From: Corallococcus silvisoli
Lineage (GTDB): Bacteria > Myxococcota > Myxococcia > Myxococcales > Myxococcaceae
DNA: 64,000 nt
Reading direction: 5' to 3'
NCBI RefSeq assembly: GCF_009909145.1
Contig: NZ_JAAAPJ010000005.1
Span: 336,470-400,469 of the forward strand
Shown: positions 6,686 through 47,145 of the stretch, piece after piece
Numbering within the stretch: position 1 is the stretch's first letter
How the letters are laid out: every line of letters begins with the position of its first letter
The notes under the pieces: model-generated
The model's database searches: none
The model's input: only the letters and a program-made list of their open reading frames with translations
What the model was told of the DNA's origin: nothing
Translations under genes and position numbers: made by a program

Positions 6686-7522
6686 TCAGCATCCGCCGCC
6701 TCGGAGCGCATCGGGGGTCCAGGGGTCTCGCGGCTCTTCCTCCACCGAGGGGGCCGGGCCCTTCCAGGCAGACCTCCGCCCCAAGGGCCTTGGGCGGCAC
6801 CGGCCCATCAATCGCAGCAGGTTGCCCCCCAACACGAGCTGCCGGTCCTTCGGAGACAGCTCCAGCGCGAGCACCTTGGCCAGCTCCACCCCCGGGTGCA
6901 GCCACGGGCCATCCGAGCCGAAGAGCAGCTTGTGTGCCCCGGCCCGCTCCACCGCCTCCTCCAGCAGGTCGAAGCGGCGCACCCCAGCGGTGTCGGCGTG
7001 GACGTTGGGCAGGCGCGCCAGGAGGTCCAACAGCGCGCGCTGCGCTCGCCAGTCGTCCGCGAAGCTGCCCAGGTGCGGGATGATGAAGCTCACCTCCGGG
7101 TACTCGGTGGCGATCAACTCCACACCGGAGACTTCTCCCATCACGTCGTAGAGGATGGGCAGCGCGAAGGCCCGGGCCACCTCGCAGATCTCACGGGAGA
7201 TGCGCGCGTCGTAGCGGTGGACCTTGATGCCCCGGAAGCCGTAGCGCCGCACGGCCTCCTGGACCCGCTCGAAGACGCGCCCGCGGTCTCTCACGGCATG
7301 CACGAAGGCGAAGCCGTAGAAGCGCTCCGGGTGGCGTTTCACGAGGCGGGCCACCTGGCGATTCGCCGTGGCGTAGTCGGAGTGGAACGCGGCCAGCAGC
7401 ACCGTGCGGGAGATGCCCGCGGCGGACGCGCGCCGCAGGTAGTCCTCCAGCGGCGCGGAGGTGTCCCAGGGGCCGGTGAGCCCGTCGCCCTTCCCGGCAT
7501 GGCAATGGCAGTCGATGATCAT
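6686..7522 (-). CDS. Amidohydrolase-2 family metal-dependent hydrolase (operon gene F)
   Basis: Starts MIIDCHCH (HxH metal motif). Also GIKVH, IIPHLG and LLFGSDGPW, typical of TIM-barrel amidohydrolases. The track ORF 6686-7657 is trimmed to ATG 7522, 7 nt after the stop of gene E. Confidence 0.85.
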   Translation of the reverse strand: MIIDCHCHAGKGDGLTGPWDTSAPLEDYLRRASAAGISRTVLLAAFHSDYATANRQVARLVKRHPERFYGFAFVHAVRDRGRVFERVQEAVRRYGFRGIKVHRYDARISREICEVARAFALPILYDVMGEVSGVELIATEYPEVSFIIPHLGSFADDWRAQRALLDLLARLPNVHADTAGVRRFDLLEEAVERAGAHKLLFGSDGPWLHPGVELAKVLALELSPKDRQLVLGGNLLRLMGRCRPRPLGRRSAWKGPAPSVEEEPRDPWTPDALRGGGC

Positions 7523-37721: not shown

Positions 37722-39113
37722 ATGGCCACGAAGATCAACGACAGCTCGCGCCCCCTCACCTCCGTGTCGCGGTTGAACTCGCAGGACGCGCGGAGCACGG
37801 ACGCGAAGTCGAAGAACCGTCCCCTCGCGTTCAAGGACGGCTTCGAGTCCTCCGGCACGCGCCCCTCCCTGCCCCGGCTGCCCGCGCCGCCCCCGGTGCT
37901 GTCGCTGCCCGCGCCCTGCACTCCGGCGCCCACGACGCCGGTGCCGGAGACGCCCGCCGAGCCGCCCGTGTCGGTCGACTCGGATCCGATGACGCACATC
38001 GAGTACCTGGCCTCCGACGCGCTGAAGGGCCGTGACAGCCCCTCCGAGGGCCTGGACGCGGCGAGCGCCTACGTGCAGGCGCACGCGGAGAAGTACGGCC
38101 TCGTGGGGCCCAACTCGAACAACCCGGCGAACCCCTTCCAGCAGAAGTTCAACGTCTACTCCTGGCTGGGGCCGAACACGGCCGGCGAGGCGAACGGCGC
38201 GGCCCACGGCGAGCACAAGCAGTTCGGCCACAAGATGTTCCAGGAGGGGTTCTACCTGGACGAGAAGATGCCCAAGGACACGCTGAAGCTGCTCAACAAG
38301 CAGTACGAGAGCACGATGAAGGCGGCGGGCCAGCCGCTGGCCCCGGCGCGGTCCGGGAAGCAGCGCAGCGTGGAGGAGCTCAAGCAGGTGGCCACGGCGA
38401 CGGGACAGGCCGTGAACACGATGGCGATGCTGCCCGGCACCGGCCCCCACAAGGACGAGGTCATCGTGGTGATGGCCCACCTGGACCACGTGGGCGTGGA
38501 CCGCAAGGGCAACCCGTTCAACGGCGCGGACGACAACGCGTCAGGCAGCGCGGTGCTGATGGCGGCGGTGCCGGAGCTGGCGGAGGCCGCGAAGAACGGC
38601 AAGCTGGACCGCTCCGTGCTCTTCATCTGGACGGGCGCGGAGGAGAAGGGGCTGGTGGGCTCGCAGTACTTCGTGGACCACCCCATCCCCGGGCTGGAGA
38701 TGAAGGACATCGCCGGCGTCATCAACACGGACATGGTGGGCCGCTGGGATGATCAGCGCCTGTCCGTCGTGGACACCAACACCAAGGGCCAGCCCAACTA
38801 CTTCCGGGACGTGGTGGACCAGGCGAACCAGCAGATGGCGGACCCGTTCGACCGCATCAACCGGGACATCAACGTGTACCGCGACCGCCAGGACGGCGCG
38901 TCGTTCGGGCGCAAGGGCGAGGACGTGCTCTTCCTCTTCGAGGGCCTGTCCAACCCCGAGGGCGGCGGCGATCTCATCCCCGAGTACCACCGGCAGGATG
39001 ACGACATCGAGAAGATCATCGAGGACAACGGCGGCAACAAGCCCCGCCGCGTGAAGGACCTCCTGGTGAACGTCATCAACCTGGCGGCGAACCGCGTCCC
39101 CGCAGAGAAGTGA
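37722..39113 (+). CDS. M28-family aminopeptidase with a disordered Pro-rich N-terminal region
   Basis: MAHLDHVG, GADDNASGSAVLMA and FIWTGAEEKGLVGSQYF, typical of M28 zinc peptidases. No obvious signal peptide. Confidence 0.85.
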   Translation: MATKINDSSRPLTSVSRLNSQDARSTDAKSKNRPLAFKDGFESSGTRPSLPRLPAPPPVLSLPAPCTPAPTTPVPETPAEPPVSVDSDPMTHIEYLASDALKGRDSPSEGLDAASAYVQAHAEKYGLVGPNSNNPANPFQQKFNVYSWLGPNTAGEANGAAHGEHKQFGHKMFQEGFYLDEKMPKDTLKLLNKQYESTMKAAGQPLAPARSGKQRSVEELKQVATATGQAVNTMAMLPGTGPHKDEVIVVMAHLDHVGVDRKGNPFNGADDNASGSAVLMAAVPELAEAAKNGKLDRSVLFIWTGAEEKGLVGSQYFVDHPIPGLEMKDIAGVINTDMVGRWDDQRLSVVDTNTKGQPNYFRDVVDQANQQMADPFDRINRDINVYRDRQDGASFGRKGEDVLFLFEGLSNPEGGGDLIPEYHRQDDDIEKIIEDNGGNKPRRVKDLLVNVINLAANRVPAEK

Positions 39114-39119
39114 TGGGAC

Positions 39120-39147
39120 GGGGGGGCGGAGCGCCCCCCCTCTTTTT
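39120..39147 (+). terminator. Rho-independent terminator
   Basis: GGGGGGGCG-gag-CGCCCCCCC followed by TCTTTTT, 7 nt after the peptidase stop. Confidence 0.8.
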
Positions 39148-39184
39148 CCGCCGGACGACGGCGCTCCGCGGGGGGCCCTCGGCC

Positions 39185-40066
39185 TCAGGCCGCCAGCTTC
39201 TCCCCCGTCGCCGCGGGCGCCGCGGCGATGGCGTCCAGTTCGTGCTGGCTGAGCACCACCTTCGCTTCGGAGCCGCGCCAGACGAACGGGATGCCCGGCT
39301 GACGGTAGAGGTGCGCGGGGATCTCCCGCGCGAGCTGGGCGTGCAGCTCCGGCAGCTTGGACCAGTGCAGCCCGTGCCGCGTGTGATGCGCGGTGTGGTA
39401 GCCCAGGTTGCCGGTCATCAGGTTGTAGCCGCGGTGGAGGATGTTGTACGAGGCCTCCGAGTGCAGCTCGGTGTTCAGGTCCACGTGGTGGAAGAAGGTC
39501 GCCCACACCGTGACGAACAGCGACGCCACCATGGGCAGCAGGAACACGAAGAGCGCGTTGTAGGGGTTCACCCAGAACAGCCCCGCCAACAGGACGACCT
39601 GCAGCACGCCCATCGCGATGAACACCCGCAGCGCCTTGGGGTGCTGCTGGCGCCCCACTTCGAACGCCCGCGGATACGCGGTCAGCATGGTGCTGAGCGA
39701 GTACTCCAGCTCGCCCATGGTCGTGCCGTCATCGCGCTTCCAGCGCGACTCGTCCTTCGTCTGGTCCAGGTAGTTGCGGTGGTGACCCAGCACGTGGTGG
39801 AGGAACCACGCCTGCGACGTCACGCCCGTCTGGAAACCGAAGATGATCTCCAGGAGGCGGTTGGGCAGCGCGTGCCGGAACATCGACAGGTGCTGGTGGT
39901 GGTGGTTCCACGAGCAGATCCATCCCTTGGGGATGATGCCCAGGCCGAACCACAACACCGGCACCCACCAGCTGCTCGCCGTGAGGAACACCGTCACGTC
40001 GAGCGCGAACACGCACGTGAACAACAGGACCGGGATGCGATCTTCGGGATGCCGGAACAGGGTCAT
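39185..40066 (-). CDS. Membrane fatty-acid desaturase/hydroxylase-family protein
   Basis: Histidine boxes WNHHHQH, HHVLGHHRNY and HTAHHTRHG. TM helices. The track ORF is trimmed to ATG 40066. Confidence 0.8.
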   Translation of the reverse strand: MTLFRHPEDRIPVLLFTCVFALDVTVFLTASSWWVPVLWFGLGIIPKGWICSWNHHHQHLSMFRHALPNRLLEIIFGFQTGVTSQAWFLHHVLGHHRNYLDQTKDESRWKRDDGTTMGELEYSLSTMLTAYPRAFEVGRQQHPKALRVFIAMGVLQVVLLAGLFWVNPYNALFVFLLPMVASLFVTVWATFFHHVDLNTELHSEASYNILHRGYNLMTGNLGYHTAHHTRHGLHWSKLPELHAQLAREIPAHLYRQPGIPFVWRGSEAKVVLSQHELDAIAAAPAATGEKLAA

Positions 40067-40356
40067 GCGCCTTCCGCGACAAGAGGGATCAGGGAACAAA
40101 TGCTGATTTTCCAACTGTAGGACGTGAAGCCCCGCCTGGAACAGGCCCGCCCAGGCGGACATGCCCCACGTCGCCCGCTCGCCCCTTCTCCCACACACCC
40201 GCCGTGGGGGCCCCCTCTGGAACGGGCAGGTTCCACAATGGCGGTAAACAACGTAGTCGCATTGAACTTGTATTTCTACTATTTCAAGAATCACAGTCCT
40301 GAATTGTGATAAACGCCGACCCAGCCCTTTCTGGCAGCACAGGCCCTGGAGGCGTC

Positions 40357-41019
40357 ATGCGGAACCAGACCATCGAGGCGGCGCTCGCGAAGAACCCCCA
40401 CCGTGAGCAGCTCATCAAGCACCGGTTCTTCGAAGTGGTGGATGAGAAGGCCTTCAGCCGCGAGCAGGCGGAGATGGTGCTGGGCCAGTGGTGGCACCCG
40501 CTGCACTACTTCCCCAACTTCCTGGGCAAGCTGCTCGCCGTCTGCCCGCAGATCGAGATGAAGACGGCGGTGTCGCACATCCTCAACCAGGAGGTGGGCG
40601 AAGGGGATCCGGAGCGCGCGCACGAGCGCTTCTTCATCACGACGATGACGGACGCGGGCTTCACGAAGGCGGGCGTGTCCGAAGCGGACATGGCGCCCGC
40701 CACGCGCCGGCTGCTCGACGGCTACCAGCGCTCCACGGACAACCACCTCACGGGCCTGGGCTTCCTCTACGGCACGGAGGTGGCGGACCTCACCATGGTG
40801 GCGAAGCTGGGCAAGCTGGTGCGCCGCACCACGGGCCTCAAGTCCCTGCCCTGGGTGGACATCCACGTGAAGCAGGAGCCGGACCACGTGGAGACGGCCG
40901 GCCACACCATGGGGCTCGAGTACACCGACGCGGAGCTGGCCACCATCACCCGGGGCGCGGAGGAGATGTGGCAGCTGTGGGTGGGATTCTTCGAGGAGCT
41001 GCGCAACCGCGTCGTCTGA
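40357..41019 (+). CDS. Haem-oxygenase-like fold, iron-containing redox enzyme family protein
   Basis: All-helical, with Glu/His-rich motifs (LNQEVGEGDPERAHERFF, YGTEVADL, HVKQEPDHVE) resembling the TenA/PqqC/haem-oxygenase-like di-iron family. GGAGG lies 6 nt upstream of ATG 40357. Confidence 0.65.
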   Translation: MRNQTIEAALAKNPHREQLIKHRFFEVVDEKAFSREQAEMVLGQWWHPLHYFPNFLGKLLAVCPQIEMKTAVSHILNQEVGEGDPERAHERFFITTMTDAGFTKAGVSEADMAPATRRLLDGYQRSTDNHLTGLGFLYGTEVADLTMVAKLGKLVRRTTGLKSLPWVDIHVKQEPDHVETAGHTMGLEYTDAELATITRGAEEMWQLWVGFFEELRNRVV

Positions 41020-41054
41020 GCCGCCGCCGCGTCACGCTCCAACCTCCTGGAATT

Positions 41055-41070
41055 CGTGCGATTTCGCACG
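41055..41070. promoter_or_regulatory. Perfect 16-bp palindrome CGTGCGATTTCGCACG
   Basis: 7-bp arms with a 2-nt centre, too tight for an RNA hairpin. About 125 nt upstream of the DUF47/PiT operon. Confidence 0.3.
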
Positions 41071-41192
41071 CGGCACTGGCGAATCTCTCCAGGTAGGGTA
41101 CTCACTCGCGCGCCACGGGAGTGCCACACCTCGCGCCTCTCCTCCTCCCGCGGCGGACCTCGCCTGGCCCTCCAGGCGCCGAGGGAGAATCC

Positions 41193-41819
41193 ATGCTCGA
41201 AAAGCTGATGCCGAAGTCGGACGAGTTCTTCGACGACTTCGACGCGCAATGCGCAAGGACCGTCGAGGGAGCCCAGCTCCTGCACGACCTGTTGAGCGAC
41301 TACCGGGACGTGCCCGCGCGCGTCCAGGCGCTCAAGGACGTGGAGCACAAGGGTGACGACGTCACCCACGCGGCCTTCAACCGGCTCCACCAGCAGTTCA
41401 TCACCCCCTTCGACCGCGGGCAGATCCACTCGCTGCTGTCGCGCATCGACGACGTGCTGGACCTGACCAACGCGGCGGCGGCGCGCCTGCTGTACTACGA
41501 GATCGACAGCACCCGGGCGGACGCCACGGAGCTGGCGCGGCTCCTGGTGCTGTCCACGCGCAAGGTGCAGGAGGTGGTGGCCGCCCTGCGCCTCATCAAG
41601 AAGCCGGAGCAGATCCTGGCGGGCTGCAAGGAGATCAAGCACCTGGAGTCGCAGGCGGACGAGGTGCTGCGCGCGGGCATGGGCCGGCTGTTCAAGAGCG
41701 GCGTGGACACCCTGACCATCATCAAGTGGAAGGAGATCTACGACCTCATCGAGACGGCGACCGACAAGTGCCAGGGTGTCGCCAACGTCATCGAAGGCGT
41801 CGTGCTGGAGCACTCCTGA
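41193..41819 (+). CDS. DUF47 (PhoU-like) phosphate-transport accessory protein
   Basis: MLEKLMPKSDEFFDDF... and ...EHKGDDVTH...ESQADEV are typical of the TIGR00153/DUF47 family that pairs with PiT. GAGGGAGA lies upstream. Confidence 0.85.
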   Translation: MLEKLMPKSDEFFDDFDAQCARTVEGAQLLHDLLSDYRDVPARVQALKDVEHKGDDVTHAAFNRLHQQFITPFDRGQIHSLLSRIDDVLDLTNAAAARLLYYEIDSTRADATELARLLVLSTRKVQEVVAALRLIKKPEQILAGCKEIKHLESQADEVLRAGMGRLFKSGVDTLTIIKWKEIYDLIETATDKCQGVANVIEGVVLEHS

Positions 41820-41820
41820 G

Positions 41821-42846
41821 ATGCTGCTCGCCGCGGTCGTCCTCATCGTCATCGTCGCGCTCGTCTTCGACTTCATCAACGGCTTCCACGACGCCGCGAA
41901 CTCCATCGCCACGGTCGTCTCCACGCGCGTGCTGTCGCCCAACCTCGCGGTGGCCTGGGCGGCGTTCTTCAACTTCGTGGCTGCGTTCGCCGGCGGCGTT
42001 CACGTCGCCAACACCATGGGCAAGGGCATCATCAACTTCGACATGCTCCGCGCGGCCGGCCCCACCGCGGTGTTGATGGTCATCTTCTCCTCGCTCATCG
42101 GGGCCATCTCCTGGAACCTGCTCACTTGGTGGTGGGGGCTGCCCTCGTCGTCGTCGCACGCGCTGGCGGGCGGGATGATTGGCGCCACGCTGCCGGTGCT
42201 GGGCTTCCAGGGCCTGGTGGGCTCCGGCATCGCGCGCATCGCGGCGTTCATCGTGCTGTCGCCGCTCATCGGCATGGTGCTGGGCATCGGGATGATGGTG
42301 GCCAGCACGTGGGCGGTGCGCCGTCAGACGCCCCTGCGCGTGGACACCTGGTTCCGCAGGCTCCAGCTGGTGTCGTCCGCCATCTTCTCCTTCAGCCACG
42401 GCACCAACGACGCGCAGAAGGTGATGGGCATCATCGCCGTGGTGCTCTTCGGCACCATCTGGCGCGACCGGCCCTTCCACATCGACTGGTGGATGATCAT
42501 CTCCTGCCACGCCGCCATCGCGATGGGCACCTTCTTCGGCGGCTGGCGCATCATCCGCACCATGGGCCACAGCCTCACGAAGCTGGCGCCCATTGGCGGC
42601 TTCTGCGCGGAGACGGGCGGCGGCGTCACCATCATCGCGCTGGCGGAGCTGGGCATCCCCGTGTCCACCACCCACACCATCACCGGCGCCATCGTCGGCG
42701 TGGGGTCCACGCGCGGCTGGCGCGCGGTGAAGTGGGGCACCGCGGGACGCATCATCTGGGCGTGGGTGTTCACCATCCCCGCCGCCGCGCTGGTGTCCGT
42801 CATCGTCTACGGCATCACGCTGGCCATCGTCCAGATGGTGGGCTGA
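41821..42846 (+). CDS. Inorganic phosphate transporter, PiT family
   Basis: FDFINGFHDAANSIATVVSTRVL and the second-half repeat SFSHGTNDAQKVMG. ATG lies 1 nt after the DUF47 stop. Confidence 0.9.
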   Translation: MLLAAVVLIVIVALVFDFINGFHDAANSIATVVSTRVLSPNLAVAWAAFFNFVAAFAGGVHVANTMGKGIINFDMLRAAGPTAVLMVIFSSLIGAISWNLLTWWWGLPSSSSHALAGGMIGATLPVLGFQGLVGSGIARIAAFIVLSPLIGMVLGIGMMVASTWAVRRQTPLRVDTWFRRLQLVSSAIFSFSHGTNDAQKVMGIIAVVLFGTIWRDRPFHIDWWMIISCHAAIAMGTFFGGWRIIRTMGHSLTKLAPIGGFCAETGGGVTIIALAELGIPVSTTHTITGAIVGVGSTRGWRAVKWGTAGRIIWAWVFTIPAAALVSVIVYGITLAIVQMVG

Positions 42847-44702: not shown

Positions 44703-44921
44703 GTTTCAAAGATCTATCAGCAGCGCCCCCCGACGAGATAGGTCCTGCCGGGTCGTCCGCTGACACCGGAAACACGCGGAGTGCGTCGCGGCCCGCGGAG
44801 ATCCTTTGCCACTGCCCGGACTCCGGGTGATTCTCGGCGAACGGAGGGGGCCGCGGTCCGGCAGAGGCAACCGCGAACGGGCGCGGGGCGTTCCTTCCGT
44901 GCCCTCGTCCGGAGCGCACGC

Positions 44922-46337
44922 ATGCGCATCGCCATCATCGCCACGTACACCCATCCGACCCGCCTGCGGATCAAGGAACCCTCCATCATGCAGTCCTCCG
45001 TGCCGGAGCTGATCGCCGGCCTGTGCCCGGAGCACGCGCAGGTGGAGATCTTCAACGAGAAGGAGGCCGACCTGCCGTTGGACAGGCACTGGGACCTGGT
45101 CTTCTTCTCGTACCTGCACTCGTACTACGAGCACACCAAGGTGCTCTCCACCCTCTTCCGTCAGCGCGGCATGACGACGGTGGCGGGCGGGCGGCACGCC
45201 AGCCACTTCCCCGACGACGCGGCCCTCTATTTCGACGCGGTCATCACCGGCGAGCCCGAATCCAACGTGCCCGCGCTCATCGCCGACTTCGAGAAGGGCG
45301 AGCTGAAGCCGCGCTACAGCCTGCCGTCGCAGGGCGCCGCGGCCATCCGCCCGTACCGCTACGAGCTCATCGACTTCACGCACAACAAGGTGCGCCTGCC
45401 GGGCATCGAGGCGTCGCGAGGCTGCCCCTTCACCTGCAACTTCTGCGTGCTCACCGGCCACGAGCGCTACCGCTTCCGCCCCATCCCCGAGGTCATCGAC
45501 GAGATCCAGACGCGCATGCGCTGGAACCCGAACTTCCTGGGGCTGATGGATGACGCCTTCGTCTTCCTGGACAACAACCTGGGCGGCTCCCCCAAGTACC
45601 TGCGCGCGCTTTGCGAAGCGCTCATCCCCTTGAAGAAGACCTGGGGCTGCGCCCTCACCTTCAACGTGCTCAAGGATGAAGCGCTGGTGAAGCTGATGGC
45701 GAAGGCGGGCTGCCGCTACGTCTACACCGGCCTGGAGTCCCTCAACCCGGACTCCATCAAGGCGATGAACAAGGGGCAGAACAAGCTGTCGGAGGTGGAC
45801 GCCGTCATCCGCCGCGTCTTCTCCGCCGGCATCCTGCTGTCCTTCGGGCTCATCGTCGGCTCGGACGGCGACACCAACGAATACCTGCACCGGCTGCCGG
45901 AGTACCTGGCGGACCTGAAGTACTTCTCCGTCACCTTCCTGGGCATCGTGTGCCCGTATCCGGAGACGCCCTTCTTTCGCGAGCTCCAGGCGGACAACCG
46001 GCTGCTGCCGGGCACCACCAGCCGCGACTATGACGGCTACACGCTGTGCCACCGGCCCAAGCAGCTCCACGGGTCGGAGGTGGTGGAGCACTTCCGCCGG
46101 CTGTGTCACACGCTGGGGAGCCTGCCCAACATCGCGCGGCACTACGCGTCCAAGCTGATGATGAGCGACCTGCCCCGCTACAAGCAGACCATCCTCTTCT
46201 CCGGGCCGGAGATCATCAGCATCCGCAACCCGGTGAAGAACCCGGCGCGCCGCTACATCGCGGGCCTGGACGCCATCGAGGAGTGGGACGTGAAGCAGAT
46301 GGCCGCGCTGGGCCTCAAGCCCCAGCTTCTGACCTGA
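44922..46337 (+). CDS. B12-binding-domain radical SAM enzyme
   Basis: N-terminal Rossmann-like MRIAIIATY...VFFSYLH...VAGGRHAS, followed by the radical SAM cluster motif CPFTCNFC. The track ORF is trimmed to ATG 44922. Confidence 0.85.
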   Translation: MRIAIIATYTHPTRLRIKEPSIMQSSVPELIAGLCPEHAQVEIFNEKEADLPLDRHWDLVFFSYLHSYYEHTKVLSTLFRQRGMTTVAGGRHASHFPDDAALYFDAVITGEPESNVPALIADFEKGELKPRYSLPSQGAAAIRPYRYELIDFTHNKVRLPGIEASRGCPFTCNFCVLTGHERYRFRPIPEVIDEIQTRMRWNPNFLGLMDDAFVFLDNNLGGSPKYLRALCEALIPLKKTWGCALTFNVLKDEALVKLMAKAGCRYVYTGLESLNPDSIKAMNKGQNKLSEVDAVIRRVFSAGILLSFGLIVGSDGDTNEYLHRLPEYLADLKYFSVTFLGIVCPYPETPFFRELQADNRLLPGTTSRDYDGYTLCHRPKQLHGSEVVEHFRRLCHTLGSLPNIARHYASKLMMSDLPRYKQTILFSGPEIISIRNPVKNPARRYIAGLDAIEEWDVKQMAALGLKPQLLT

Positions 46338-47145
46338 GCCGGGACGGCAGGCGCACGTCCCACGCCAGCCCCACGGCCTGGAGCGCGCGGATGAAGAGCC
46401 AGCCTGGATCCCACTGCCACCACACCCAGCCATGCCGCGCGGACGCGGGGAAGGCGTGGTGGTTGTTGTGCCAGCCCTCGCCCAGCGCGAGGACGCTCAC
46501 CCACCACACGTTCCGGCTCTGGTCGCGCGTGTCGTGGACGCGCGAGCCGAACGCGGCGTGGCACACGGAGTTCACCGCGTAGGTGCTCTGCATCCAGCAC
46601 ACCACCGGCAGGAAGAAGTACGCGGGCACCGCGCGCCAGCCGAACGTCAGCCCCACCGCGAGCACCGCCAGCACCTGCGGCGCGATCCGGTAGCGCAGGA
46701 GCCAGTGGTAGTAGCCGTCCTGCGCCATGTCGCGGCACCAGGTGCGCCAGCCGTCCTCCTCCGTGGAGGCCTCGTTGAGGATCCACCCCATGTGCGCGTA
46801 CCAGAAGCCGCGCACGGGCGAATGCACGTCGCCCTCCATGTCCGCCTTCGCGTGATGCAGCCGGTGGTTGGCGGCCCACAGCAGCGGGCTGCCCTGGGCC
46901 GTCAGCATGGCCACCGTCACCAGCGCGTACTCCACCCAGCGGGGGCAGGCGAAGGCCCGGTGGCAGAGGAGCCGGTGCAGCCCCACCGTGGTGCCCAGCC
47001 CGATGGACACGTACACCCCCAGCGCCACCGGCAGCGCGTACGGAGGCCACGGGAGGAAGAAGGCCAGCGCGGCCAGCGCATGCACCACGAGCATGTAGCC
47101 GACGATGACGGGACTGAACCGGAAGCGGAGCGGAGCGGTGGTCAT
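46315..47145 (-). CDS. Acyl-CoA (delta-9-type) fatty-acid desaturase
   Basis: Histidine boxes HRLLCH, HRLHH and HNNHH. Only the last 276 codons of track ORF 46315-49815 are used. The 3' end overlaps the radical SAM gene by 23 bp. Confidence 0.85.
   Translation of the reverse strand: MTTAPLRFRFSPVIVGYMLVVHALAALAFFLPWPPYALPVALGVYVSIGLGTTVGLHRLLCHRAFACPRWVEYALVTVAMLTAQGSPLLWAANHRLHHAKADMEGDVHSPVRGFWYAHMGWILNEASTEEDGWRTWCRDMAQDGYYHWLLRYRIAPQVLAVLAVGLTFGWRAVPAYFFLPVVCWMQSTYAVNSVCHAAFGSRVHDTRDQSRNVWWVSVLALGEGWHNNHHAFPASARHGWVWWQWDPGWLFIRALQAVGLAWDVRLPSRLRSEAGA

Follow-up and report, generated by a model that had tools for sequence, protein, structure and literature searches.

Two genes lie back to back at positions 39185–41019 of the 64,000-nucleotide stretch of the Corallococcus silvisoli genome analyzed here (the window). 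DES (39185–40066, minus strand) encodes a 293-residue membrane three-His-box di-iron enzyme of the FA_desaturase family and is monocistronic at this locus; HDO (40357–41019, plus strand) encodes a 220-residue haem-oxygenase-like dimetal oxidase with a full six-ligand set. A first-pass annotation of the DNA had described the same two divergent open reading frames and the 290-bp spacer that separates them (40067–40356), and both are as it described them. It had gone on to propose, by analogy with UndA and UndB, that the pair makes an unusual lipid or hydrocarbon. On its far side DES is convergent with an M28 peptidase gene (37722–39113, plus strand; Pfam and synteny), a DES neighbor specific to Corallococcus, and a terminator-like G+C-rich hairpin followed by a T run (39120–39140) lies between the two. 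Beyond HDO, a conserved 5′ region (41040–41192, plus strand) leads into a plus-strand operon (41193–42846; Pfam) encoding a PhoU_div (DUF47) protein (41193–41819) and a PHO4 phosphate transporter (approximately 41821–42846). Exact-sequence look-ups of the DES and HDO proteins of the window gave no match.

The mechanical reading frame of DES (stop at 39185, minus strand) extends to 40294; we set the start at the ATG at 40066 because all orthologs begin MTLFRH. DES matches Pfam FA_desaturase (PF00487) with 98.6 bits (cutoff 29.7) over profile positions 2–246 of 253, and its motifs WNHHHQH, LHHVLGHH, and YHTAHH follow the His-box pattern (HX3-4H, HX2-3HH, HX2-3HH). The three boxes (His55–His59, His90/91–His95/96, and His224–His228) are invariant or nearly so among 31 homologs, down to 52% identity. 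The AF2 model (pLDDT 93) has an AlkB-like multi-helix fold, the best PDB match in Foldseek being FtAlkB (8sbb; TM 0.57, probability 1.00), with SCD1 weaker; the profile score, the conserved His boxes, and the fold together uphold the assignment of DES as a three-His-box membrane enzyme. The likeness to the AlkB/SCD class (PDB 8SBB, 4ZYO) lies in the His-rich di-iron membrane fold, and the second His box of DES (HxxGHH) is similar to that of AlkB. DES is, however, shorter (293 residues), and sequence searches linked it to no solved structure: the single-sequence PDB search was empty and the profile search returned nothing meaningful. A search of NCBIfam with DES also gave no match. With UndB, as described in published work, DES shares the Pfam superfamily and the general three-His-box architecture. 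The gene is under purifying selection (dN/dS 0.14–0.34) and has native codon usage. The window also encodes, 6 kb away, a classical Δ9-type desaturase to which DES is unrelated.

A scan of genome contigs with DES yielded 79 loci. The DES clade comprises membrane di-iron His-box enzymes spread through Myxococcota; metagenome-assembled genomes labelled as Planctomycetes or Bdellovibrionota contain more distant relatives. Neither the Cystobacter DES neighborhood nor a conserved open reading frame downstream of DES, found mostly in the Planctomycetes-labelled genomes, gave informative Pfam matches. At 15 loci, that of M. xanthus and 14 others, a lipoxygenase-lipoxygenase-P450-desaturase (LOX-LOX-P450-desaturase) operon ends with the DES ortholog; the genera concerned are Myxococcus, Pyxidicoccus, Vitiosangium, Hyalangium, and Citreicoccus (LOX-P450-DES, locus L047), together with related genomes. 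The operon-terminal gene is translationally coupled, and in M. xanthus it overlaps the P450 stop codon. The desaturase of this operon is apparently the ortholog of DES, with 72%–79% identity over the full length and identical His boxes. Whereas it follows two LOX genes and a P450 gene in M. xanthus, DES in Corallococcus stands alone between the M28 peptidase gene and HDO or PhoU_div; a conserved upstream region of its own precedes it, and the terminator-like hairpin follows. We infer that the two LOX genes preceding the M. xanthus desaturase are MXAN_1744 and MXAN_1745, which encode characterized arachidonate 11- and 12-lipoxygenases (PMC5760719).

The conserved LOX-P450 partners of the DES orthologs suggest lipid oxidation, not decarboxylation. 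DES is probably a lipid desaturase, which would desaturate or otherwise oxidize the acyl chains of fatty acids, either in the membrane or free; outside Corallococcus, in the genera with the LOX-P450 operon, the probable role of its ortholog is to feed or modify an oxylipin pathway. As the fourth gene of a conserved LOX-LOX-P450-desaturase operon in Myxococcus, the DES clade is a pointer to an endogenous oxylipin pathway in that genus.

The HDO start codon at 40357 is preceded, 7 nt upstream, by a GGAGG ribosome-binding site. A GTG at 40306 is not conserved as a start, since the lengths of the indels at that point are not divisible by three. HDO matches Haem_oxygenas_2 (PF14518) with 91.4 bits (cutoff 28.9), and its AF2 model (pLDDT 92.8) has an all-helical haem-oxygenase-like fold that matches CADD, Npun_F6505, PolF, BesC, and UndA with TM 0.72–0.79 (0.77–0.79 for CADD, BesC, and PolF), in agreement with the proposed haem-oxygenase-like di-iron type. 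The first-pass annotation had singled out the di-iron ligands as the point on which this assignment could fail, but in the alignment the set is complete: Glu79, His89, Glu141, His170, Glu174, and His177 are all present and invariant in 31 sequences. The resulting pattern, E-x9-H / E / H-x3-E-x2-H, conforms to the six-ligand rule (E-x9-H in core helix 1, E in core helix 2, HxxxD/ExxH in core helix 3); each residue aligns with its BesC equivalent, and the spacing agrees with that in RohS (Glu124/His134/Glu190/His218/Asp222/His225) and SznF. One profile alignment tentatively places a Phe at the “seventh ligand” position of HDO, in the manner of the substrate-triggered UndA, AetD, and BesC. If this placement is right, the substrate carboxylate would complete the site.

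Judged by sequence profile, the nearest relatives of HDO are BesC and the p-aminobenzoate (pABA) synthases, with UndA related at the level of fold only; a single-sequence PDB search with HDO was empty. BesC, the 4-chloro-allylglycine synthase of Streptomyces cattleya (PDB 7TWA), is the top PDB profile match (E 8e-9; fold TM 0.77). It shares residue types with HDO at all six metal-ligand positions and likewise has a non-carboxylate residue at the seventh (Leu in BesC, Phe in HDO), although the identity is only approximately 20%. Both proteins are small and single-domain, and may be likened as tailoring enzymes for natural-product building blocks. The setting of BesC is an amino-acid halogenation/alkyne pathway, whereas members of the HDO family adjoin nonribosomal peptide synthetase (NRPS), MFS_3, alpha/beta-hydrolase, and luciferase-like genes. 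UndA, the Pseudomonas 1-undecene synthase (PDB 4WWJ/6P5Q), has the same ligand set, a fold match of TM 0.72–0.74, and, as described in the literature, a Phe at the seventh-ligand position, as HDO probably does. However, when the PDB was searched with the HDO profile (E ≤ 10), BesC and the pABA synthases were detected and UndA was not; the fold-level likeness corresponds to 12%–14% identity. The substrates of UndA are free C10–C14 fatty acids; HDO is tied to fatty acids only by its neighboring desaturase, an adjacency that is not conserved.

The inverted repeats noted earlier in the spacer, TGGAAC-N6-GTTCCA at 40218–40235 and CCGCCTGG-N11-CCAGGCGG at 40132–40158, are real, but short inverted repeats are only marginally more frequent there than expected by chance (the observed count is reached by 4%–7% of dinucleotide shuffles), and neither repeat is conserved across seven aligned orthologous HDO-containing Corallococcus loci; the left arm of the former is missing in most orthologous loci. 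In the intergenic alignment, the DES-side and HDO-side halves of the spacer have evolved separately. The DES-proximal part (40067–40150), presumably the DES promoter and leader, aligns between Corallococcus loci irrespective of whether they contain HDO. The HDO-proximal part belongs to a presence/absence cassette of approximately 0.9 kb (40150–41035, plus strand, boundaries approximate), composed of variable spacer, an AT-rich upstream element, and the HDO gene. The AT-rich region (40236–40320, plus strand), presumably the HDO promoter or a regulator site, has a GC content of 0.40 against 0.705 for the window. It reads GGTAAAC...TTGAACTTGT.TTTC...CAAGAAT...GTCCTG..TTGTGATAAAC and is conserved across the eight aligned HDO-containing Corallococcus sequences, one of them from the window, with no variation in TTGTGATAAAC. 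Upstream of HDO in Citreicoccus and Pyxidicoccus, TTGTGATAAAC is absent, and part of the core motif AACTTG..TTTC..TTTCCAAG is kept in differing contexts. A sigma-70 consensus scan of 38900–41400 identified no promoter, and a search by eye for sigma-54-like motifs found none that was convincing. An Rfam search of the whole window gave no match, and thus no riboswitch in the spacer. An ATCACA-N9-TGTGAT palindrome at the presumed HDO promoter was considered as an operator and rejected because its left arm varies among Corallococcus species.

HDO adjoins DES in 7 of the 79 DES loci, all of them in Corallococcus. No DES gene was found beside HDO in Citreicoccus, Pyxidicoccus, or 83 other HDO loci, nor was HDO found next to the DES orthologs in the LOX-P450 operons of other genera. 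Even within Corallococcus, HDO is missing from 4 of 11 junction-spanning loci, all four of which keep DES and both flanks. In these loci (L008, L010, L011, and L015) the M28-DES...DUF47-PHO4 flanks are identical, and the intergenic alignment reveals a clean indel of approximately 0.9 kb. A neighbor-joining tree of DUF47+PHO4 places the HDO-lacking species on at least two separate branches, with HDO present in the outgroup; the HDO cassette has been lost at least twice within Corallococcus, leaving DES undisturbed. C. praedator, C. terminator, and C. sicarius are among the species without HDO. At least eight Corallococcus lineages keep the divergent order, which leaves room for some local co-regulation. 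Synteny in related genomes, which the first-pass annotation had named as a check on the pair, does not support it: the two genes are not conserved jointly, and elsewhere their partners differ (LOX-P450 for DES; NRPS or PhoU_div-PHO4 for HDO). The distribution shows that DES and HDO are neighbors by rearrangement and not a conserved lipid- or hydrocarbon-making pair.

The neighbors of HDO elsewhere were scored by targeted tblastn with Pfam-verified domains. The family is overwhelmingly NRPS-adjacent, with an NRPS domain within 1 kb at 44 of 83 HDO loci and within 4 kb at 28 of the 32 that have at least 1.5 kb on both flanks; the association is notable in Thermoanaerobaculia (Acidobacteriota). 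Many of the adjacent NRPS genes start with a fatty-acyl-AMP-ligase-type module, which makes a fatty-acyl substrate for HDO conceivable. No NRPS was found within the 64-kb window. In Pyxidicoccus, the HDO homolog (81% identical) heads an HDO-MFS_3-NRPS arrangement; the orthologous MFS_3 (69% identical) and NRPS (59%) of Corallococcus sp. EGB lie at 6.96 Mb, 1.33 Mb from HDO at 5.63 Mb. HDO and the NRPS occur together in at least six complete Corallococcus genomes. For NRPSs of similar identity (52%–61%) from Archangium, Vitiosangium, and Myxococcus, no HDO match from these genera was among the top matches listed, and in the one context examined, that of the Archangium violaceum NRPS, HDO was not alongside. 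The Archangium NRPS (61% identity) was set aside as a candidate ortholog, its cluster being different (LysW/LysX, sulfotransferase). HDO probably acts in trans as a substrate-triggered oxidase that tailors a nonribosomal peptide, and would oxidize an amino-acid, acyl, or peptide intermediate of that product.

PhoU_div-PHO4 is the only neighbor that stays with HDO in a second genus. In Citreicoccus inhibens, a purine-catabolism operon is followed by HDO-PhoU_div-PHO4, with no DES alongside. HDO with its own AT-rich upstream element sits upstream of PhoU_div-PHO4 in two genera, and only in Corallococcus did DES come to adjoin its other side.

The best reading is that DES and HDO are two independent members of known superfamilies, each from an uncharacterized clade. 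We consider it likely that both genes are real, selectively maintained, and functionally independent, with DES acting in lipid oxidation and HDO in NRPS tailoring in trans. Cooperation between them, either UndB/UndA-like or sequential, would yield an unusual unsaturated lipid or a 1-alkene from fatty acids, with the spacer providing shared control. Both folds include fatty-acid oxidizers, and the UndA-like fold of HDO, its full ligand set, its probable seventh-position Phe, and the retention of the divergent order in at least eight lineages all accord with such a scheme. Cooperation is nonetheless decidedly unlikely given the restriction of the pair to one genus, the loss of HDO from loci that retain DES, the different partners of each gene elsewhere, the failure of UndA to appear in the profile search, and a spacer whose halves have separate histories and whose inverted repeats are not conserved. 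A later-arising variant supposes that HDO, once parted from its NRPS cluster and beside the relocated DES, was recruited with DES into a new, genus-specific pathway, oxidatively cleaving or decarboxylating a DES-made unsaturated fatty acid to give an unusual alkene or lipid. This would represent a recently evolved UndA/UndB-like partnership, but it is highly improbable. That HDO in Corallococcus is instead a stranded, functionless remnant of a broken NRPS cluster might be argued from its 1.33-Mb distance from the MFS_3-NRPS pair that its Pyxidicoccus homolog adjoins and from its repeated loss within the genus. This is very unlikely, since the open reading frame is intact with all ligands present, conservation extends to the upstream element and ribosome-binding site, and many species as well as Citreicoccus have kept the gene; it has native codon usage, and across Corallococcus it is under purifying selection (dN/dS 0.10–0.21, with dS comparable to that of DES).

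Two further proposals link HDO to other functions. In one, HDO works with the downstream phosphate-uptake genes as a three-gene unit, for example by oxidizing a phosphorus- or stress-related metabolite. HDO, PhoU_div, and PHO4 lie on the same strand, with HDO and PhoU_div 157–174 bp apart; theirs is the only adjacency shared by the two genera, the outer flanks differing, and a search for a terminator-like site after HDO found none. We regard such a unit as very unlikely: PhoU_div-PHO4 is intact in HDO-lacking Corallococcus and has a strongly conserved 150-bp 5′ region of its own that is also present in Citreicoccus, neither PhoU_div nor PHO4 is near HDO in any of the 87 HDO loci outside Corallococcus and Citreicoccus, and the block is explicable as inherited synteny, the two genera being closely related. 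The other proposal, that HDO is a CADD-type self-sacrificing pABA synthase for folate biosynthesis, draws on the structural comparison, in which C. trachomatis CADD is the best match (TM 0.77–0.79, nearly full length), on the same size and six-ligand pattern as the CADD/CT610-type enzymes (PDB 1RCW, 8VA9, 9PJ4; TIGR04305), and on profile matches to 9pj4 (E 1e-7) and 8va9/1rcw (E ~1e-4). However, identity is 14%, and the match to TIGR04305 is weak (39.2 bits against an NCBIfam cutoff of 200). The position of CADD Tyr27, which we take to be the sacrificial tyrosine of the Chlamydia enzyme, is occupied in the HDO family by an invariant Phe25, whereas CADD and 9pj4 have Tyr (FY motif). Moreover, HDO belongs to an NRPS-associated family and is dispensable within Corallococcus, which sets it apart from a housekeeping folate gene. 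A pABA synthase function for HDO is extremely improbable.

As neighbors by rearrangement, DES and HDO are of little consequence as a pair, and the locus makes a poor candidate for a new hydrocarbon pathway. Haem-oxygenase-like dimetal oxidases have repeatedly been a source of new chemistry on amino acids, and the NRPS-adjacent HDO clade is therefore a reasonable target for genome mining. The clade is small, 141 representatives of 50%-identity clusters matching at E ≤ 1e-3 among 1.84 billion, and many of its members come from soil metagenomes.

The gene for a 293-residue membrane desaturase-like protein (DES; 39185–40066, − strand; His boxes WNHHHQH, LHHVLGHH, and YHTAHH; Pfam FA_desaturase, 98.6 bits) is, as the first-pass annotation stated, divergent from and separated by 290 bp from that for a 220-residue, all-helical haem-oxygenase-like dimetal oxidase (HDO; 40357–41019, + strand; Haem_oxygenas_2, "iron-containing redox enzyme," 91.4 bits). 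The HDO start is assigned to the ATG at 40357, which has GGAGG upstream and is kept in orthologues; a GTG at 40306 is not conserved among them and was rejected. The flanking genes encode an M28 peptidase (37722–39113, + strand), convergent with DES across a terminator-like hairpin (39120–39140), and, 3′ of HDO, a PhoU_div (DUF47)-PHO4 phosphate-transporter pair (41193–42846, + strand). The hairpin pairs perfectly over its 9-bp G/C stem, has a T run after it, and could terminate transcription in both directions. The closest homologues of DES and of HDO are both from Corallococcus. Both genes show purifying selection (dN/dS 0.10–0.34) and native GC3 (~0.96; the window from this high-GC myxobacterium has 70.5% GC); they are neither pseudogenes nor recent foreign acquisitions.

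The HDO metal-ligand set, which the first-pass annotation had marked for checking, is complete: Glu79, His89, Glu141, His170, Glu174, and His177 are all invariant among 31 homologues, down to ~50% identity. Their spacing (E-x9-H, ~52 residues, E, ~29 residues, HxxxExxH) matches that of RohS, with HDO ligands Glu124, His134, Glu190, His218, Asp222, and His225, and that of SznF, for which six such ligands are also listed (PMC13133933). In a profile alignment, the equivalent positions of BesC, the closest solved relative by sequence profile (E 8e-9), align residue for residue with the six; UndA was not detected in this search of solved structures. The AlphaFold model of HDO (pLDDT 92.8) matches CADD, Npun_F6505, PolF, BesC, and UndA (TM 0.72–0.79). 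As far as sequence can show, HDO is a real dimetal enzyme. Its Phe52 aligns with the "seventh ligand" position, which is also Phe in UndA and AetD, tentatively placing HDO among the substrate-triggered HDOs, in which the substrate carboxylate completes the site. The clade is small, with 141 representatives of 50%-identity clusters at E ≤ 1e-3.

A scan with DES, using one genome per species, gave 79 loci, against which all window neighbours were searched by tblastn. The order M28-DES-…-PhoU_div-PHO4 is present in those Corallococcus loci that reach far enough. In seven of the scanned Corallococcus loci, and likewise in strain EGB, HDO separates DES from PhoU_div, but it is missing from four that keep DES (C. 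praedator, C. terminator, C. sicarius, and one MAG), where DES and PhoU_div are only ~290 bp apart. On alignment, this presence or absence is a clean ~0.9-kb indel that takes in an AT-rich upstream block together with the HDO gene and leaves the two flanks undisturbed. In a neighbor-joining tree of PhoU_div and PHO4, rooted on the HDO carrier Citreicoccus, HDO-less species occur at no fewer than two places, with C. sicarius sister to the HDO-bearing C. llansteffanensis and CA053C; such scattering implies repeated HDO loss. No DES locus outside Corallococcus has HDO within 6 kb, and synteny of the pair is not conserved in related genomes. In Citreicoccus inhibens, HDO (86% identical) is directly 5′ of PhoU_div-PHO4, with a purine-catabolism operon and no desaturase on its other side; the DES of this species is located in a lipoxygenase (LOX)-P450-DES cluster (L047, one of the homologous loci compared). 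Since Citreicoccus shares HDO-PhoU_div-PHO4 without DES, that adjacency is the oldest, and DES-HDO is younger and Corallococcus-specific.

Elsewhere, HDO almost always adjoins large NRPS genes. Pyxidicoccus caerfyrddinensis (HDO 81% identical) has HDO-MFS_3-NRPS on a single strand, and Thermoanaerobaculia homologues (~54%) are divergent from a 6,300-residue lipo-initiated NRPS. Among 83 HDO neighbourhoods (80 metagenome-scan loci plus L001, L004, and L005; NRPS domains Pfam-verified), 44 have adenylation or condensation domains within 1 kb of HDO, as do 28 of the 32 with at least 1.5 kb on each side when the distance is extended to 4 kb. These loci also repeatedly carry genes for MFS_3 exporters, an Abhydrolase_2 esterase, and luciferase-like monooxygenases. 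No NRPS is encoded in the 64-kb window. In Corallococcus sp. EGB, whose genome is complete, M28-DES-HDO-PhoU_div-PHO4 is at 5.63 Mb and the orthologues of MFS_3 (69% identical) and of the NRPS (59% over 99% of the query) are at 6.96 Mb, and HDO and the orthologous NRPS occur together in at least six complete Corallococcus genomes. The NRPS-adjoining clade (e.g. L001 1–8714, L088, L095, L101, L102, L117, L126, and L128) comes mostly from soil metagenomes, its named homologues being Thermoanaerobaculia (Acidobacteriota); many of the adjacent NRPS genes open with a fatty-acyl-AMP-ligase-like module. HDOs of this clade may be tailoring enzymes.

DES orthologues (72%–79% identity) occur throughout Myxococcaceae and Archangiaceae. 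That of M. xanthus is the final gene of lipoxygenase/lipoxygenase(PLAT)/P450/desaturase (L087 2247–8846), its start overlapping the P450 stop codon. This operon recurs at 15 loci, in Myxococcus, Pyxidicoccus, Vitiosangium, Hyalangium, Citreicoccus, and related genomes. MXAN_1744 and MXAN_1745, two neighbouring M. xanthus lipoxygenases that have been characterised (arachidonate 11- and 12-LOX; PMC5760719), are presumably encoded by the two LOX genes of the M. xanthus operon. The arrangement, noted at L087, L029, L034–L041, L043–L047, and L049, suggests that these bacteria have an oxylipin pathway of their own, and the desaturase may make its native substrate. Archangium and Cystobacter copies are without LOX/P450 neighbours and sometimes duplicated; the two Archangium copies are in tandem or 9–11 kb apart (L025 6001–6834 and 7172–8014; L028; L030/L042; L027/L031). 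No sequence-level relative of DES was found in the PDB, and the nearest solved structure to its model (pLDDT 93) is AlkB (TM 0.57). In ten loci, mostly Planctomycetes-labelled metagenome-assembled genomes, a conserved ~220-residue ORF without a Pfam match lies 3′ of the DES homologue (L063, L065, L070, L071, L073, L074, L076 [6795–7457], L077, L081, and L084). A second, classical Δ9-type desaturase (46318–47145, − strand; HRLLCH, HRLHH, GEGWHNNHH; FA_desaturase, 67 bits), 6 kb from DES/HDO and convergent with a radical-SAM protein gene (44781–46337, + strand), is not significantly similar to DES (E 0.056).

The best-supported reading is that the two enzymes are independent. DES would be a membrane enzyme, encoded on its own, that desaturates or oxidises acyl chains and belongs to a Myxococcota clade tied to oxylipin genes in other genera; HDO would be a substrate-triggered dimetal oxidase that works in trans on a nonribosomal-peptide pathway, its clade being uncharacterised and NRPS-associated; and the two would have come to adjoin through rearrangement. 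We infer the substrates and products of both. The sequence-level observation of the first-pass annotation stands, and HDO has its metal ligands, but the coupled lipid or hydrocarbon pathway that the annotation proposed, by analogy with UndA and UndB, finds no support in the comparative genomics, and a partnership recruited specifically in this genus is very unlikely. Rather than the DES-HDO pair, the leads to keep are the HDO clade with its NRPS link and the operon of LOX, P450, and desaturase genes.

A functional link of HDO to the phosphate module, suggested by their old adjacency, is improbable, if a little less so: the ~150-bp region 5′ of PhoU_div-PHO4 (41040–41192) is kept across Corallococcus with or without HDO, and in Citreicoccus, and PhoU_div or PHO4 is near HDO in none of 87 HDO loci outside these genera, so this adjacency too is most likely inherited synteny. 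That HDO is a functionless remnant, given its losses within the genus, is about as doubtful as the partnership, both genes being under purifying selection. Least probable is a CADD-type pABA synthase: such enzymes are among the nearest solved relatives by sequence profile (E 1e-7 to 1e-4), but HDO scores 39 against a TIGR04305 cutoff of 200, and an invariant Phe in its clade aligns with Tyr27, the sacrificial tyrosine of CADD.

Both inverted repeats named by the first-pass annotation are present in the DES-HDO spacer, but neither is kept in seven other aligned HDO-containing Corallococcus loci, and short inverted repeats are marginally above dinucleotide shuffles (observed counts reached in 4%–7%). 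The Corallococcus alignment instead reveals a DES-proximal block of ~85 bp and an AT-rich block (40% GC) 5′ of HDO, terminating in invariant TTGTGATAAAC; 50–130-bp indels throughout the intervening sequence indicate that the two spacer halves behave as separate units. The spacer has no Rfam family in an Rfam search and no sigma-70 consensus promoter in a consensus scan. An AT-rich motif, AACTTG..TTTC..TTTCCAAGA (40236–40320; ~7880–7960 in L005; ~9840–9990 in L171), accompanies HDO in three genera; as it stays despite differing neighbours, a dedicated regulator-binding site or promoter for HDO is suggested. The strongly conserved 41040–41192 region, which includes the palindrome CGTGCG-ATTT-CGCACG (41055–41070) and ACACTGGCGAATCTCTCCAGGTAGGGTA, probably serves the phosphate module as its promoter, leader, or regulator site.
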